The notes beneath the pieces are model-generated. The model had not been told where the DNA came from. It searched no databases and saw only the letters and a program-made list of their open reading frames with translations. Source: a virus. From it: DNA of 25,282 nucleotides. Where the stretch lies: positions 1 through 25,282 of IMG/VR virus record IMGVR_UViG_3300025587_000227. One strand, written 5' to 3'. The translations under genes were made by a program, and so were the position numbers. Of this stretch, positions 19,760-25,282 are shown piece after piece; the first letter of the stretch is position 1, and every line of letters starts with the position of its first letter.

Positions 19760-20269
19760 TTATTTAGATACATATACACTATTATAATACTCTATCAGAT
19801 CATCCACATTCACCCCTTTCACCCGTGCGGCCACCTGGTACACATCCTCCCCAGTGTCAAAGACCAGGTCATCCGCACTGACTAGTCCTCTCTCCTGGAC
19901 TCTTTCCATGATGAATTCACAGGCTTCATCTAACCGCATCACCTCTGCATCCACCACCTCTGTCTTTGGCGGGGAATGTAACAGTTTAATTTTCTCTTCG
20001 CACTCCTCAATCTCTACCCTCAACTCCTCCTTACGTAGTTCAAGGCCCTGAATCTTCTGGTCAATGGATCTTATCTCATCCTTTGCCCTGATTATCCTCC
20101 TCTTCAGACGGGATGTTTCTTCTATGATGTGTGCTTCTGATTCTAATGTACCCCCCTCAACGAGGACTTTATAGCCTGCCTTGATTAGGTCTGGGAGGGT
20201 TAAGCCTTTCCTCCTCGCGTCCTCGTGAAGTTTTTCATCTACTCTAACAGTTGTTAATTTCATGTTCAT
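19760..20269 (-). CDS. RHH (CopG/CcdA-like) domain plus coiled coil
   Basis: TTVRVDEKLHEDARRKGLTLPDLIKAG, followed by a long heptad segment. Confidence 0.65.
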   Translation of the reverse strand: MNMKLTTVRVDEKLHEDARRKGLTLPDLIKAGYKVLVEGGTLESEAHIIEETSRLKRRIIRAKDEIRSIDQKIQGLELRKEELRVEIEECEEKIKLLHSPPKTEVVDAEVMRLDEACEFIMERVQERGLVSADDLVFDTGEDVYQVAARVKGVNVDDLIEYYNSVYVSK

Positions 20270-20510
20270 CCCGAAGTTTGTAAGTGGTTACCTTGTGTTG
20301 GTAGGTGTTCTCTTTTTCCCCAACCCCCTTAGCTACGACACGTACCTGAAAGAGGATGGACTGGCGTGTGGGGTTGTATTTCCTACTGAACTCATACCTT
20401 TTCCCAAGGTTGCCGATGATCTCTTCAAGTGTGAGTTCAGCATCCTCATCTTCCAGGACCTTTATGATGGCTTCTCTGAGATCCTTCCTCCCTTTTATTT
20501 TCATGATCAT
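20244..20510 (-). CDS. Winged-helix DNA-binding protein
   Basis: LREAIIKVLEDEDAELTLEEII...PTRQSI...TTYKL. Confidence 0.6.
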   Translation of the reverse strand: MIMKIKGRKDLREAIIKVLEDEDAELTLEEIIGNLGKRYEFSRKYNPTRQSILFQVRVVAKGVGEKENTYQHKVTTYKLRDEHEINNC

Positions 20511-20570: not shown

Positions 20571-20852
20571 TCATGCTACATCCCTCCTTGAAGACATGAG
20601 ATCCTTTCTCCTCTTCTCCTTCTCCAGGTTCCTCATGCTCTCCTCGTTCATGGCCCTGGCCTCTATACTCATCCTCATCAATGCCTCCTCGAGGTCCACT
20701 TCCTTTAGGAGGCCATATGTGCCGATGGCCTCCCTGAAACAGTAATTCATCTGGTTGATGAGGACTTGGATGAGGACCTGCAGGTCAGCCCCCTCTCCTT
20801 GGAGGAACCTGTAGAGGTCATCATCCACTTGGATTGTCACGTCTACTTCCAC
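20571..20852 (-). CDS. Putative RHH-like protein
   Basis: VTIQVDDDLYRFL...DLQVLIQVLI; GTG start with RBS. Confidence 0.5.
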   Translation of the reverse strand: MEVDVTIQVDDDLYRFLQGEGADLQVLIQVLINQMNYCFREAIGTYGLLKEVDLEEALMRMSIEARAMNEESMRNLEKEKRRKDLMSSRRDVA

Positions 20853-21420
20853 TCCTCATCACCCCCATTTTAAATCTTTTCAGTCTCGCCCTCACACTTC
20901 CTTTACTTCTTTGAAGCTCATCAGCAATTGTACTGATGAGCTCTCCCTCCCTGTACATTCTGAGAAGTTTTTCTTCTTCATCCGGGCTCCATGGCTTCAT
21001 ATGCCTCTTCGGGGTTGTATTCGCGTAAGATCTCCTCCGTGTCCTAATATGGTATTTTCCCATGTAGGATCTGATGCTAGGTATGGTCCTGGGTTTCACA
21101 TGGGGATTCCATAGGGAGATGTACTGGAACGTTGCTGAGATTTCCTTGTATGTGAATCCCTTGCGTACGAGGCTGTGAAGGAGCTGTTTCTCCACGCGAC
21201 TCCACCTACTCCACCTACTCCTCACACGTTTGGACATGTCAGGATCATAATTTACCGCGTAGATAATGGATTGCCTTGACCTTCCCATCTCTTCCGCTAT
21301 CTCAGTATAGCTATGCCCTTCCTTGAAGAGCCTCTTGACTTTCTTTAGGAGTTCTGGTGTCCATGGGGCCCCTTGGTTTTTGGGTATGGGGGGTATCCTA
21401 TCCCCCCCCACCCATGTCAT
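20821..21420 (-). CDS. Three-repeat Myb/SANT-like HTH protein (start ATG 21420 or ATA 21396, not 21507)
   Basis: Three W(T/S)...L..L...G.(S/T)..EI...(GR)S..S(I/V) repeats. Confidence 0.75.
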   Translation of the reverse strand: MTWVGGDRIPPIPKNQGAPWTPELLKKVKRLFKEGHSYTEIAEEMGRSRQSIIYAVNYDPDMSKRVRSRWSRWSRVEKQLLHSLVRKGFTYKEISATFQYISLWNPHVKPRTIPSIRSYMGKYHIRTRRRSYANTTPKRHMKPWSPDEEEKLLRMYREGELISTIADELQRSKGSVRARLKRFKMGVMRSGSRRDNPSG

Positions 21421-21640
21421 TAATGATGGTATGGAGGACGGCCCAGCAGTGCTTGCAGAGGTAGGATCCCTCCGGCCCGTGACGATAATAATAATCAGGA
21501 CATTCACACCTGATCATATCATCATAGACTGTGACAAGGTACTCCTTGCCACTATACCCTTTCACGTGGAAAGCCTGGAGGGACTCATCTCTCTCCAAGA
21601 TCTCAACTTTCAGGTTTCTCCCTTTCCCCATTCTCATCAT
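21398..21640 (-). CDS. SWIM zinc-finger protein
   Basis: Y.V...CECPDY...CKHCWAV. Confidence 0.85.
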   Translation of the reverse strand: MMRMGKGRNLKVEILERDESLQAFHVKGYSGKEYLVTVYDDMIRCECPDYYYRHGPEGSYLCKHCWAVLHTIINDMGGGG

Positions 21641-21827: not shown

Positions 21828-22033
21828 GCATCATCCTCCTCTATTCTTTGGAGGGTCTGCACACCCCCCATGACGAGGAATTCTCTCCCTGCAACGTTAA
21901 TGAAGAATTTGTTGTTCCACACGTCCACCTCTGTTATCCTCCCTCTAAGGGGGGGATGGGAGTTTATAAATTCCACGATAACCATCTCCCCCTTGAGGTT
22001 CATCAGTCTTTTCTGGTAGGGGTTAAGCTTCAC
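21821..22033 (-). CDS. Sm/LSm/Hfq-like protein, 70 aa
   Basis: Helix then LKGEMVIVEFIN...LRGRITEVDVWNN (Sm1-like) and EFLVMGGV (Sm2-like). Confidence 0.65.
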   Translation of the reverse strand: MKLNPYQKRLMNLKGEMVIVEFINSHPPLRGRITEVDVWNNKFFINVAGREFLVMGGVQTLQRIEEDDAW

Positions 22034-22581
22034 CCCTCAACACCCCCCAGGACACCCCGTATCCTGTGGTACTCCTCCTCAGTGACGCGACCATCACTGT
22101 ATATGTCCTCAAGTTCCTGTAAAACTGTGCTAAGGTGTGTATTGCCATGCTTTGCCCTGGTGAGATCTATCAGGGCCTTGACTGTTTTATCATCGTATTC
22201 TTCACTCCTGAGTTCGGTGAGCCCAACCTGCCCACTCCCTGGCTTCTTGATCTTCACCGTGTAAACATGGTACTCAGTCCCTGTCTTGGCCTTCTTCTTC
22301 CCATGATACTGTATGAGGACACCGTACCCCTCATTGATCCTTTTGAAGTACCATATGAGGGCCTTATGACCCTTCACAAGGTACTTTTCCCTGTCCACTG
22401 TGAGGACCTCCATCACCTGCAGGTCCCCCATCTTTGTGGGGATCTTCCTGATTCCTAGGCAGACCCCTCGGAGTTCATCCCCTGGTTTCGGTTCCCAGAA
22501 TGGGATCTCCATGTCGAGGGGCTCCCATCCATCATCTTTTTTGACTTCTTGTAGCATTCTTTCCACCTCATTCATCTCCAT
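22030..22581 (-). CDS. OB-fold putative ssDNA-binding protein with SHOCT-like C-terminus, 183 aa
   Basis: WEPKPGDELRG...GYGVLIQYHGKK...YHVYTV; C-terminal LEDIYSDGRVTEEEY; start ATG 22581 after GGAGG (upstream part of the track ORF is spurious). Confidence 0.6.
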   Translation of the reverse strand: MEMNEVERMLQEVKKDDGWEPLDMEIPFWEPKPGDELRGVCLGIRKIPTKMGDLQVMEVLTVDREKYLVKGHKALIWYFKRINEGYGVLIQYHGKKKAKTGTEYHVYTVKIKKPGSGQVGLTELRSEEYDDKTVKALIDLTRAKHGNTHLSTVLQELEDIYSDGRVTEEEYHRIRGVLGGVEG

Positions 22582-22595
22582 ACCCAATTCCTCCT

Positions 22596-22757
22596 TCAGA
22601 GATTGAAAGTGTGGCGTGGAGAAGCCTCCATCACCTGTAAAAAAACAAATAAGATGAAAAATAATAGCACACACCCCATTATGAGGATGAAGCGGAGAAC
22701 TTGTGGGTCAACTTTACATGTCTCCTTCTTCTCTAACCTCATATCGAAAAGGTTCAT
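22596..22757 (-). CDS. 53-aa single-TM protein (MNLFDMRLEKKETCKVDPQVLRFILIMGCVLLFFILFVFLQVMEASPRHTFNL); not in the ORF track
   Basis: ATGA overlap with the upstream histone-fold gene; fills the gap to the next RBS; 19-residue hydrophobic stretch. Confidence 0.7.
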   Translation of the reverse strand: MNLFDMRLEKKETCKVDPQVLRFILIMGCVLLFFILFVFLQVMEASPRHTFNL

Positions 22758-23047
22758 CTGTATCCCTCCATCTGGATGTACTCACCATCTCTGTTCATGC
22801 CTCTCACCACTGCAAGGTACCCCCTCCGCACGTTCTCTTCTGTGACTCGGAGGATGCCCTCTTCTCCTTTCAGGTAGGCTTTCATCCTCGCGTCCCATGC
22901 AGCGTCCTGTATGAGACGTAGGAGGATGGCTATGGATGCCTTTTCAAGTTCATCCATGCCTTCAGGGGAAAATTCGACTTGGAAGTTTTTTATGGTGTCT
23001 TTAGCCCATTCTTTCACGGCTTCTTCTCGCATCCTGATTTTTATCAT
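22754..23047 (-). CDS. Histone-fold protein B, 97 aa
   Basis: EFSPEGMDELEKASIAILLRLIQDAAWDARMK...RVTEENVRRGY fits the histone L1-alpha2-L2-alpha3 register. Confidence 0.7.
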   Translation of the reverse strand: MIKIRMREEAVKEWAKDTIKNFQVEFSPEGMDELEKASIAILLRLIQDAAWDARMKAYLKGEEGILRVTEENVRRGYLAVVRGMNRDGEYIQMEGYR

Positions 23048-23500
23048 TTACTCCCCCTCCATGAGTATTTCCCGGATTCTGTTGTACTCTTCCACTGATT
23101 CCTCATCCGTGTATGAGAGAATGTCAAGATAGCCGAGGTAAATGTGTTCTTCGTCTATGGTGATGTCATTCTGTGTTTCCCCGAGGTCCCTTGTGAAGTC
23201 TTGTATGTGTGCTGTCTGCCCGGCGCTTTCAAGGATGTTCCAGGCCAGACTGGAGAGGTATCTTTCGAGGGCGCGGATGGCCTCGGGAGTGATTCTCGCG
23301 TTTCTCTTGTTGCGGATGCCGAGGATCTGGTCGTGGACCATCTCCTCGAGTGGGGGTTTTCTGTTAATGATTTTCACGATGACTCTGTTGAGTTCATCGT
23401 ATTCTTCCCAGGCCTTTCTTGCTTCTTCTTCTCGTCCTTCTTTTTTTAGTGCCTGGTATTTTCTCCAGGCTTTCTCTTTTTTTGAGAGGATTGGTTTCAT
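23048..23500 (-). CDS. Histone-fold protein A with charged N-terminal extension, 150 aa; first early gene
   Basis: RITPEAIRALERYLSSLAWNILESAGQTAHIQ...TIDEEHIYLGY vs HMf-type [45 protein letters not shown]. Confidence 0.72.
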   Translation of the reverse strand: MKPILSKKEKAWRKYQALKKEGREEEARKAWEEYDELNRVIVKIINRKPPLEEMVHDQILGIRNKRNARITPEAIRALERYLSSLAWNILESAGQTAHIQDFTRDLGETQNDITIDEEHIYLGYLDILSYTDEESVEEYNRIREILMEGE

Positions 23501-23504
23501 GTCT

Positions 23505-23631
23505 GATCAACTCCTTTTCCTTTAGTAGTATATTCTATCTCTTAGTATATATTTTTTTTGGTATATTGTTATTTTGGTATGTTGTTATTTGAGAGGATAA
23601 ATATATAAGATATGCACACCAAGAATAAAAC
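23505..23631. promoter_or_regulatory. Divergent promoter region (early operon vs RHH gene) with four ~16-bp-spaced T(A/G)GTAT(A/G)T boxes
   Basis: Boxes at 23526, 23543, 23559, 23575; minus-strand A-run/ATATATA near 23545-23559; plus-strand AAATATATA near 23599-23607; RBS GGAGTTGA. Confidence 0.65.
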
Positions 23632-23808
23632 ATGAAAGAAAATGAAAAAATACATACAAGCATATACATAAACTCAAGAAAGTTCAAACTCTTCAAAGTA
23701 ATAGCGATGCTCAAATATGAGAAAAGCCCAATGACCTCCTCCTGGGAGGAAGCCATCGATCTTTTCATAAAACACAACAAAGAATACTTAGAACACCTTG
23801 AAATGTAA
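23632..23808 (+). CDS. 58-aa RHH protein, candidate repressor (MKENEKIHTSIYINSRKFKLFKVIAMLKYEKSPMTSSWEEAIDLFIKHNKEYLEHLEM); not in the ORF track
   Basis: Alternating beta strand HTSIYI, helix A, helix B SWEEAIDLFI; TATA about 25 nt upstream (leaderless); divergent from the lytic genes. Confidence 0.75.
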   Translation: MKENEKIHTSIYINSRKFKLFKVIAMLKYEKSPMTSSWEEAIDLFIKHNKEYLEHLEM

Positions 23809-23819
23809 TCCATGATCAA

Positions 23820-23990
23820 AAGCCCCCCACAACTCAATGTCTGATCAACTCCAAAACAGTTAGGGGGGCACCTATATATACAGCATGAATTCTACTATAC
23901 ATTGTATCCCCCTGGGATGCACCGCCTCAGGAGGGGGTCTTGTATTTTCTTGGTGGGCGTCAAGAATATACCCCCCATCCTGAGGCTTAA
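23820..23990 (+). ncRNA. Candidate multi-target antisense RNA locus with three hairpins
   Basis: Hairpins at 23822-23869, 23903-23921 and 23925-23985, each carrying a segment complementary to a viral translation start; internal TATATATA at 23873-23880. Confidence 0.5.
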
Positions 23991-24052
23991 CTAATGATAA
24001 TAAATATAAAATTAATAAGAATAGTGAAGGAGAGCATCAGAAAACTAAAGCA

Positions 24053-25261
24053 TTATCTTTCAAGTTTTTCCAGTATCTCCGGATGAGACGATATAAGATT
24101 ATACAACTTCTCAGTCTTCCTCACCCACTCTCTTAACTTCTCCTGAGACTCACGCAATTCTTTAATCTCATTCTCCTTCTCTTCCAGTTCTTTCACAATC
24201 TCACGAACCTCAGGGGCCATTACTCGTCTTGTAACAGTCTTCTCAAAAGTCAAAGATCGCATCCTTTTTCTGTATTCTCTTTCAAGGTGATCTATATTCA
24301 CTTTGAAATACGCCTCTGTGACTGGATTCACTTTATGACCAAGCAGCCAATCAATTGCCAGCTTATCCATTCCCTCCTTATAAAGGATGGTCGTGAAAAG
24401 CTTCCTAAGTTTGTGGGAAGTTAAACGACGATTACCCGCTGCATCCCTTCCAAGATAGAATCTGTCATTAAGACGATTGAAAATGTTAGCATAAGTGATC
24501 GGTTTGAGTCTATCTCCATTTTGAGTTGAAAATAGAGGCTGAGTCTCTTTTAAAGGTCCTCCATTTAATCGACGGTACCTTAGATAGTCAAGGATTTTTA
24601 TATTAGCCTCAGGAGTGCTGAAAGTAACATATGGCATTCCTGTCTTTACTCTATTTACCTTCCAAACTCCAACAATCTCTTCATCTTGTATGCGTTTTCT
24701 GGCATCCTCATAATCCTCTCCGAGGACATTGAAACCTATGGCCTTATTATAATCAACAACATTGAGTCTTCGAAGTTCCGCGGATCCCATCCCACTGGTG
24801 AGGTGCAGGAGGATCATGGCTTTTTCCCGTGGATGGGTGTTGTCCAGGACATTTTTGATCTCATGGAGATTTATAAGATCATCCATGGATTTATTTTCAG
24901 GTCGAATTTTGTATGTGATCTTTGGGGGGTCAATCTCATATTCATTGTATAGTGCTTTGATTTTGGAGATGTATAATCTGATAGTTGATCCTTTGACCCC
25001 CTGGTCTTGTAGGTGTTGAATGTATTTTAGGAAATATTGTCTGATCTTGCGTTTTCTTCTTTTAACCCCTGAATCTTCCTCTTTTTCCGCTTCTTCTATT
25101 AATTCTGTGATTGTTTTTCCTGTGACTTGTGAGTAGTGTTGTATTGCTGCAATGTATGTCTCTATAGTTTTTTCTTTTATGTTCCTGGAAAATATGAATT
25201 CTTGTAGGAGAGGGTCTTGGAGAAGTTCTTCTTTTGTTGGGTGTGTTTTCTTGGTGGGCAT
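24053..25261 (-). CDS. int: Tyrosine recombinase / integrase with C-terminal coiled coil (start ATG 25261, or 25282)
   Basis: N-terminal SAM-like domain (TIETY...Y), RVKTG Lys, SHKLRK (HxxR), LGH, AYF Tyr; box I reads SGMGSAEL. Confidence 0.92.
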   Translation of the reverse strand: MPTKKTHPTKEELLQDPLLQEFIFSRNIKEKTIETYIAAIQHYSQVTGKTITELIEEAEKEEDSGVKRRKRKIRQYFLKYIQHLQDQGVKGSTIRLYISKIKALYNEYEIDPPKITYKIRPENKSMDDLINLHEIKNVLDNTHPREKAMILLHLTSGMGSAELRRLNVVDYNKAIGFNVLGEDYEDARKRIQDEEIVGVWKVNRVKTGMPYVTFSTPEANIKILDYLRYRRLNGGPLKETQPLFSTQNGDRLKPITYANIFNRLNDRFYLGRDAAGNRRLTSHKLRKLFTTILYKEGMDKLAIDWLLGHKVNPVTEAYFKVNIDHLEREYRKRMRSLTFEKTVTRRVMAPEVREIVKELEEKENEIKELRESQEKLREWVRKTEKLYNLISSHPEILEKLER

Positions 25262-25282
25262 GGATGGTATGTATACTCGCAT

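Follow-up and report, generated by a model that had tools for sequence, protein, structure and literature searches.

ORF31 and a trimmed paralogue in a Methanothermobacter provirus: a possible histone-like fold and a putative exchangeable immunity cassette

The gene pair and its junction

The stretch of DNA analysed here (the window) is the IMG/VR provirus record IMGVR_UViG_3300025587_000227, 25,282 base pairs long, which we place among the Methanothermobacter viruses of the psiM2/psiM100 kind (Leisingerviridae), and our subject is a tandem pair of minus-strand genes within it, A and B. Both of the open reading frames (ORFs) that a first-pass annotation had marked at 22754-23500 are present: gene A (23048-23500) encodes 150 amino acids (aa) and belongs to the ORF31 family of psiM2 and psiM100 (phrog_37053), of which it is a full-length member (expect value, E, 1.6e-85 over residues 1-150), and gene B (22754-23047) encodes 97 aa and is a paralogue of A, shortened at the N terminus and comprising the core domain only. 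ORF31 is labelled 'unknown' in the records of both psiM2 and psiM100, and our literature search returned no function or fold assigned to ORF31 or PHROG 37053. In its AlphaFold2 (AF2) secondary structure, which is of low confidence (predicted local distance difference test, pLDDT, 65.7), A divides into a basic N-terminal helical hairpin (residues 7-45), a candidate histone-fold core (~48-128) and a C-terminal helix (133-147).

The ribosome-binding site and start of A lie at 23499-23514 on the minus strand (GGAGTTGATCAGACAT), and an AT-rich TATA-like box on the same strand (AAAAAAAATATATAC, 23541-23560), ~45-60 nucleotides (nt) upstream of the A ATG, is a candidate promoter of the leftward genes. 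The first-pass annotation had the pair heading an early operon; the part of this that stands is that A is plausibly the first gene of a leftward block, since it comes after a divergent, better-conserved 58-aa gene on the plus strand.

At the A/B junction (23045-23062, minus strand) the order is GGAGGGGGAG-TAA-ATG, with the stop codon of A (23050-23048) directly abutting the start codon of B (23047-23045) in the same frame. This in-frame abutment, read earlier as leaving the two genes one codon away from fusion, is true of the window but not conserved, as the sibling contig L004, 99% identical, has TAA-AA-ATG, with two extra A's that place the genes out of frame. The strong Shine-Dalgarno sequence of B, GGAGGGGGAG, is embedded in the last codons of A, and the layout would fit translational coupling of B to A. 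A contig from an RNA library (22805-23227) spans the junction, which is weak evidence, DNA carry-over being possible; in all runs the RNA data are assembled contigs, the depth of which is unable to rank genes, and run X9 had no contig on the window.

The cassette around gene A

Comparison with related viruses places A in a segment that moves as a unit. The stretch 23043-25282 is 99.9% identical to prophage psiM100, in a match that runs from the integrase through A and ends exactly at the A stop, beyond which the window and psiM100 are unrelated. Contig L005, which is of the psiM2 type, is 98.9% identical to the window over the integrase (24071-25282) but shares no DNA similarity with it in the region of the small gene and ORF31, its ORF31 being 39% identical to A. 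These sharp mosaic breakpoints, at the integrase end and at the A stop, indicate that A is part of an exchangeable cassette of ~1 kb (~23043-24070). The integrase gene itself occupies 24053-25282 on the minus strand; the record ends exactly at the integrase ATG, which puts the attachment (att) site just outside the window, and in psiM100 the att core lies ~50 nt beyond the integrase start.

Divergent from A, on the plus strand, stands the 58-aa ORF (23632-23808), a candidate repressor of the immunity cassette. Between the window and the psiM2-type cassette it retains 54.5% identity, gap-free over 55 aa (70.5 bits), compared with 47% with gaps (48.5 bits) for the overlapping minus-strand 'ORF30' frame (23535-23837). 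There is no significant Pfam match for the 58-aa ORF, and the ORF30 frame reaches E 0.24. As a side observation, the better conservation of the plus-strand ORF relative to the 'ORF30' of psiM100 suggests that the public annotation may have chosen the wrong strand. Gene A thus lies divergent from a putative repressor gene and is exchanged together with it, as a first lytic gene would be.

The 16 nt across the ribosome site and start of A recur exactly 352 nt upstream, the second copy being found on the plus strand at 23837-23852, beyond the small plus-strand gene. The psiM2-type cassette, as seen in L005 and in psiM2 itself (L003), has its own copy of 10 nt (AGGCGGCGAC), situated 344 nt upstream of its own ORF31. 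If transcribed rightward, the two copies would be candidates for type-specific antisense RNAs directed at the translation start of ORF31.

This arrangement has well-known counterparts. In bacterial temperate phages, cro and ant hold the first lytic position beside the immunity gene, and lytic genes gated by antisense RNA include icd/ant of P1 under c4 RNA and ant of P22 under sar RNA. Like A, the genes icd/ant of P1, ant of P22 and cro of lambda stand first beside the immunity gene and are swapped with it, and the antisense match to the ribosome site is as in P1 c4 and P22 sar, with the difference that here the RNA and its action are both predicted. No sequence or fold relation of Ant, Icd or Cro to A was found.

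A separate observation concerns RNA from the same region. Metatranscriptome run X16 contains a contig of 351 nt (23639-23989) at a depth of ~260, where those covering A and B have 2-4. In the X16 assembly, both a 10-kb contig and a loose end resembling a tRNA T-arm (GGTTCGAATCC) are connected to it at 23989, and the abundant RNA may stem from another locus that shares sequence; ARAGORN detected no tRNA in the window.

Paralogy, distribution and predicted fold

The first-pass annotation had described A and B as sharing the motifs of paralogues, and three lines of comparison agree with it: (i) BLASTP aligns the two at 22% identity over 88 residues (E 3e-4); (ii) B gives a marginal match to the ORF31 PHROG, phrog_37053 (E 9.4e-4 over residues 2-81); and (iii) hhalign of the A-type against the B-type alignment reaches a probability of 84% (P 7.4e-6, 60 columns). 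We take them to be true, distant paralogues. The start of B aligns with A residue 41-44, so B is without the N-terminal 40 residues of A, as well as without most of its C-terminal helix. Relatives of A are 34-41% identical and share 26 invariant residues; B is 24-29% identical to any A type, from which it follows that B is not a recent copy of the neighbouring A.

A HMMER profile search that exhaustively covered 1.84 billion cluster representatives resolved the family into four clusters at 50% identity, namely A's own, B's own, P0006 (the psiM2 ORF31 type) and P0007 (a third type), and held no fused A-B doublet. All family contexts recovered are of the psiM type. A metagenome scan, the sole source of genomic contexts for P0006 and P0007, yielded three: L004, which carries A plus a variant of B; L005, which has ORF31 and no B; and L006, of the P0007 type, where B is again absent. 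Separate scans gave no relative in genome contigs and, with P0006 and P0007 as queries, none in viral contigs, and tblastn found no B in psiM2 or psiM100. B is restricted to one sublineage, and the distribution points to ORF31 as the conserved gene and B as a lineage-specific extra. Since ORF31-type genes occur without a B-like partner in psiM2, psiM100, L005 and L006, the obligate viral heterodimer put forward in the first-pass annotation is argued against. A and B do not show the constant co-occurrence that would be expected of paralogous histone-fold partners of the NC2, NF-Y, TAF and CENP kind.

Within its sublineage, B has the look of a maintained gene. A cluster look-up returned 17 distinct sequences at 90-100% identity, and B is seen in length forms of 97, 103, 106, 107 and 66 aa. 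The common form has 107 aa, and the 97-aa protein of the window is a rare form from which ten residues (YSDPEKYADP) have been deleted in loop L1. Substitutions are mainly I/V, L/I, L/V and D/E, a single site (R75) is variable, and the frame is kept in the variants, two forms with a 16-nt duplication being changed in the tail only. Mostly conservative changes in an intact frame over 17 variants suggest a functional gene. Next to B, at ~22742-22757, the window lacks 256 nt that are present in L004 (L004:8084-8339); this loss removes a 90-aa gene (L004:8068-8340), of which just the first codons, MNLFD, are left in the window, and which has a homologue after ORF31 in L005 (8698-8955).

The histone fold proposed earlier for both proteins gains moderate structural support for B from Foldseek, VIA-align and BFVD, while our own model of A gives none. 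The AF2 model of B was built from a shallow alignment of 9 sequences and has a pLDDT of 74.6 and a predicted template modelling score (pTM) of 0.61, with four of the five models alike (mean pLDDT 72.4-74.6); its three helices (residues 8-21, 28-60 and 70-82) are separated by loops 6 and 9 residues long. In a Foldseek search of the PDB its top 50 matches are all histone-fold proteins (H3, CENP-A, H4, CENP-W, Marseillevirus), at probabilities up to 0.92, template modelling (TM) scores of 0.5-0.58 and E of 0.13 or worse. A wide VIA-align search over 48,161 representative chains, which is independent of Foldseek, placed TAF6/TAF9 first at Z 6.7 (values below 8 may reflect a 'common arrangement' of helical proteins), and ~20 of the top 30 chains were histone-fold, aligned over 66-77 residues. 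Other matches included CENP-W (Z 6.5) and NC2 (Z 5.2), and the archaeal histone HPhA superimposes on the model with a root mean square deviation of 2.7 A over 62 of 66 residues (Z 4.8). In a second VIA-align look, 603 of 998 chains had Z of at least 5 and the top 50 were all histone-fold. The best matches in the viral library BFVD are giant-virus histones (Marseillevirus, Medusavirus), and in an ESM Atlas feature search the named neighbours of A and of B all belong to the histone clan, at scores of 0.81-0.87, where anything below 0.9 is rated a lead only. On the strength of these models we consider it rather probable that B adopts a histone-like fold. The core of A may be histone-like too, a claim that is moderately supported and follows only from its homology to B.

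By sequence, on the other hand, the fit to the alpha2-L2-alpha3 register of archaeal histones that the first-pass annotation had seen lies within chance. Neither A nor B matches the Pfam histone families PF00808 and PF00125 at the curated cut-off, translation of the entire record in six frames gave 0 matches to PF00808, and among the wider family P0007 comes closest, with a sub-threshold match to PF00125 (E 0.066, 13.9 bits versus a cut-off of 26.4). Against an alignment of 20 archaeal histones from databases, gathered with a 69-aa HMfB probe (100% identical to P0008), hhalign placed the family in the proposed register with a probability of 7.5% (P 0.0046), the A type alone reaching 4.1% and the B type alone 0.1%. 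In a single-sequence control A came 5th of 109 window ORFs, and since an unrelated ORF scored as high (21.1), the family score lies within background. That ORF (20244-20510, minus strand, 88 aa) has the top single-sequence score, over 22 columns, and itself has weak sub-threshold Pfam matches (best PF0610-like_N, E 0.046); we treat this ORF as background. In searches of the PDB, profile A2 had two matches only, histone H3 (a chain of entry 8ua7) and a histone of Marseillevirus, both at sub-threshold E of 0.3-0.65 and with alpha1-L1-alpha2 in register. Weak matches of profile A1 to the ET domain of BRD3/4 (E 0.14-0.6) were dismissed as noise.

The motif-level description fared better. As noted in the first pass, the canonical RKT with an aspartate 7 residues later is absent from the aligned L2/alpha3 of both proteins, and L2 carries an insertion, the family having 6-10 extra residues between alpha2 and alpha3. 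The aligned L2 of the family is GE.G.(I/L).(V/I)(T/D)EE, with N, H, V or M in place of the clamp aspartate; A and P0007 have the L1 arginine, which the psiM2 type and B lack; and the alpha2 N-cap (T/S-P/E-E/D-A), together with the hydrophobic strand and acidic alpha3 start, aligns in register with archaeal histones.

What kind of histone-fold protein this would be can be judged by comparison with known systems. The RKT motif and aspartate pair have been described as a universal histone signature (10.1101/2025.06.26.661778). Histones are small and basic, with isoelectric points (pI) of 8.06-9.59 for HMfA/B and HmtB, compared with 5.18 for A, 5.59 for B and 4.96-5.34 for their relatives. Given the acidic pI and the missing RKT and R-D clamp, A and B are unlikely to wrap DNA in the manner of HMt histones. 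A-type proteins do keep a basic L1 (invariant G-I/V-R-N) and the basic N-terminal hairpin (pI 9.4), through which they may make some contact with nucleic acid. The archaeal histones HMfA/B and HMtA/B (PF00808) share with B the alpha1-L1-alpha2-L2-alpha3 layout, as predicted for B, and a similar size, but they are basic and have the R-D clamp, whereas A and B are acidic and without a significant sequence match to them; in addition, the alpha2 and L2 of A and B are 6-10 residues longer, and A has the extra N-terminal hairpin and C-terminal helix. Among the best structural matches of B are TAF6/TAF9, CENP-T/W, CENP-S/X, NC2 alpha/beta and NF-YB/C, modules whose task is to pair proteins, not to wrap DNA, and which often consist of paralogous partners; these pairs are eukaryotic, we found no sequence relation of them to A or B, and A:B pairing is itself only hypothetical.

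Viral histones provide a further comparison. Those of Marseillevirus and Medusavirus are virus-encoded and of the histone fold, like the predicted B, but basic and nucleosome-building. The phage histones of Schwab et al. 2024 (PMC11390915), which come from metagenomes of viruses and bacteria, are likewise devoid of RxTxxxD and have an additional helical domain; they combine an alpha3 of 3-4 residues, a shortened alpha2 and an N-terminal position of the fold with a C-terminal tetramerisation helix (PMC11390915). The B model has no such stub, its alpha3 being 13 and its alpha2 33 residues long. A also has a C-terminal helix, at 133-147 of its low-confidence model. Unlike the source of the phage histones, the host here is an archaeon with histones of its own, and the literature searched reports no histone-fold gene in archaeal tailed viruses.

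Possible roles of the pair

The reading that we favour, tentatively and with slightly less than even confidence, is that A is the first lytic gene of an exchangeable cassette and a dimeric switch protein built on a histone-like fold, with B as its trimmed paralogue. The proposal has several parts: (i) the central helix-loop-long helix-loop-helix domain of A and B would be a histone-like dimerisation module; (ii) A would work as a dimer, A:A in viruses without B and possibly A:B or B:B here; (iii) the antisense copy and the putative repressor would keep A gated, A being the trigger of lytic growth; (iv) A would be a switch of the antirepressor or Cro kind, working by contact with proteins or by contacts that its basic L1 and N-terminal hairpin make; and (v) B would be an accessory or modulating paralogue, perhaps translationally coupled to A. 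The gating of A as a lytic trigger is suggested by its place first after the immunity gene, its exchange together with that gene and the type-specific antisense copy.

Several points weigh against this reading. The Z of B (5-6.7) falls within the 'common arrangement' range of helical proteins, and the common B form has an L1 of 16 residues, which is long by the standard of histone folds. None of the histone families could be linked to A or B by sequence at statistical significance, and a larger profile (A6) ranks DNA polymerase, P450 and YbaB, which we dismissed as noise, ahead of histones. The full-length model of A (pLDDT 65.7) retrieves nothing below E 2 with Foldseek, and in the wide VIA-align search it matches miscellaneous helical proteins, several sigma-factor region 2 chains at Z ~5 among them; so poor a model is treated as uninformative, rather than as evidence against the fold. 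The dimerisation of A and B and any partner are hypothetical, and the switch role of A is deduced from its position and from analogy.

These weaknesses raise the question of whether the histone likeness is an artefact, with A and B being unremarkable phage regulators, small and helical, for instance an analogue of Cro or of an antirepressor together with a duplicate of it. AlphaFold and the fold searches could have been pulled by a pattern of three helices towards the commonest open helix-loop-helix shape, and the shallow alignment of 9 sequences, the Z below 8, the ESM scores below 0.9, the sequence tests, all below threshold and within background, and the miscellaneous matches of the A model would suit such an explanation. 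It accounts less well for the four of five B models that score alike (72.4-74.6), for matches that span the whole domain (70-79 residues) and dominate both the 48,161-chain search and the viral library, and for a language-model method that independently leads to the histone clan for A and B separately; we regard an artefact as doubtful, though with a sizeable share of the probability. Independent of this choice is the question of whether B is the leftover 3' two-thirds of another ORF31-type gene, stranded by a cassette swap and nonfunctional as a partner. The psiM100 mosaic breakpoint exactly at the A stop and B start, the beginning of B at A residue 41-44 without the N-terminal hairpin, its 24-29% identity to any A type, which makes it no recent copy, and its several length forms are in keeping with a remnant. 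Seventeen variants with intact frame and mainly conservative substitutions, as well as B's own strong Shine-Dalgarno sequence and the RNA-library contig over the junction, speak for a working gene, and we judge the leftover explanation unlikely.

The first-pass annotation had looked to the host for the target, and in a developed form its idea is that an A:B histone-fold heterodimer attacks the host, either by capping or co-folding with HMtA/HMtB, which would stop or dissolve hypernucleosomes, or by acting NC2-like on TBP/TFB. The histone-like fold predicted for B, with TAF6/9 and NC2 among its structural matches, is in line with this, as is the packing of host DNA with histones, and a poison subunit would be expected to be just such a histone-fold protein, acidic and DNA-blind. 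Capping histone variants have been described in Methanobacteriales (PMC7776873), which also favours the idea. Yet the presence of A-type genes on their own in psiM2, psiM100, L005 and L006 makes obligate pairing impossible, and co-folding with HMf/HMt histones is unsupported by sequence similarity. Moreover, ORF31 is 34-41% identical between virus types, whereas the host histones are 75-100% identical to HMfB among the matches listed, a divergence that better fits a partner specific to each virus type. We rate this host-attack scheme as improbable. The first-pass annotation also offered the chromatinisation of viral DNA, which would be hypothetical, the acidic pI and the lost R-D clamp speaking against DNA wrapping. 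A bolder variant would have an acidic, DNA-blind histone-fold protein, silenced by repressor and antisense RNA, that once induced pairs, alone or with B, with HMt histones or TBP/TFB. It is a long shot; if true, the protein would cap or dissolve hypernucleosomes or block host promoters, and no earlier viral 'anti-histone' based on a histone fold would be known.

Further leftward, also on the minus strand, the window encodes a 214-aa ORF1-like protein (phrog_28379, 22030-22674) with a short C-terminal motif that matches Topo-V HhH (E 8.9e-5, below the cut-off) and SHOCT-like models. Next come an 80-aa SWIM zinc-finger protein (21398-21640), whose E of 4.4e-6 passes the cut-off, and after it a protein of 228 aa (20821-21507) in which two domains are Myb/HTH_23-like.

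To conclude, virus-encoded histone-fold proteins are known in giant viruses of eukaryotes and, by prediction, in a few phages. What the present analysis adds is the apparent tie between ORF31 and an exchangeable immunity cassette with a candidate antisense gate. Genetic tools are now available for Methanothermobacter. If the predicted fold is true, ORF31, for 25 years an 'unknown' of psiM2 and psiM100, becomes a tractable candidate, from which one could learn how the switch from lysogeny to lytic growth is thrown in a methanogen virus, or how such a virus deals with the chromatin of its host. If it is false, the pair would still include the first lytic gene, presumably gated, of a swappable immunity cassette, which would be ordinary phage biology in an unusual host.

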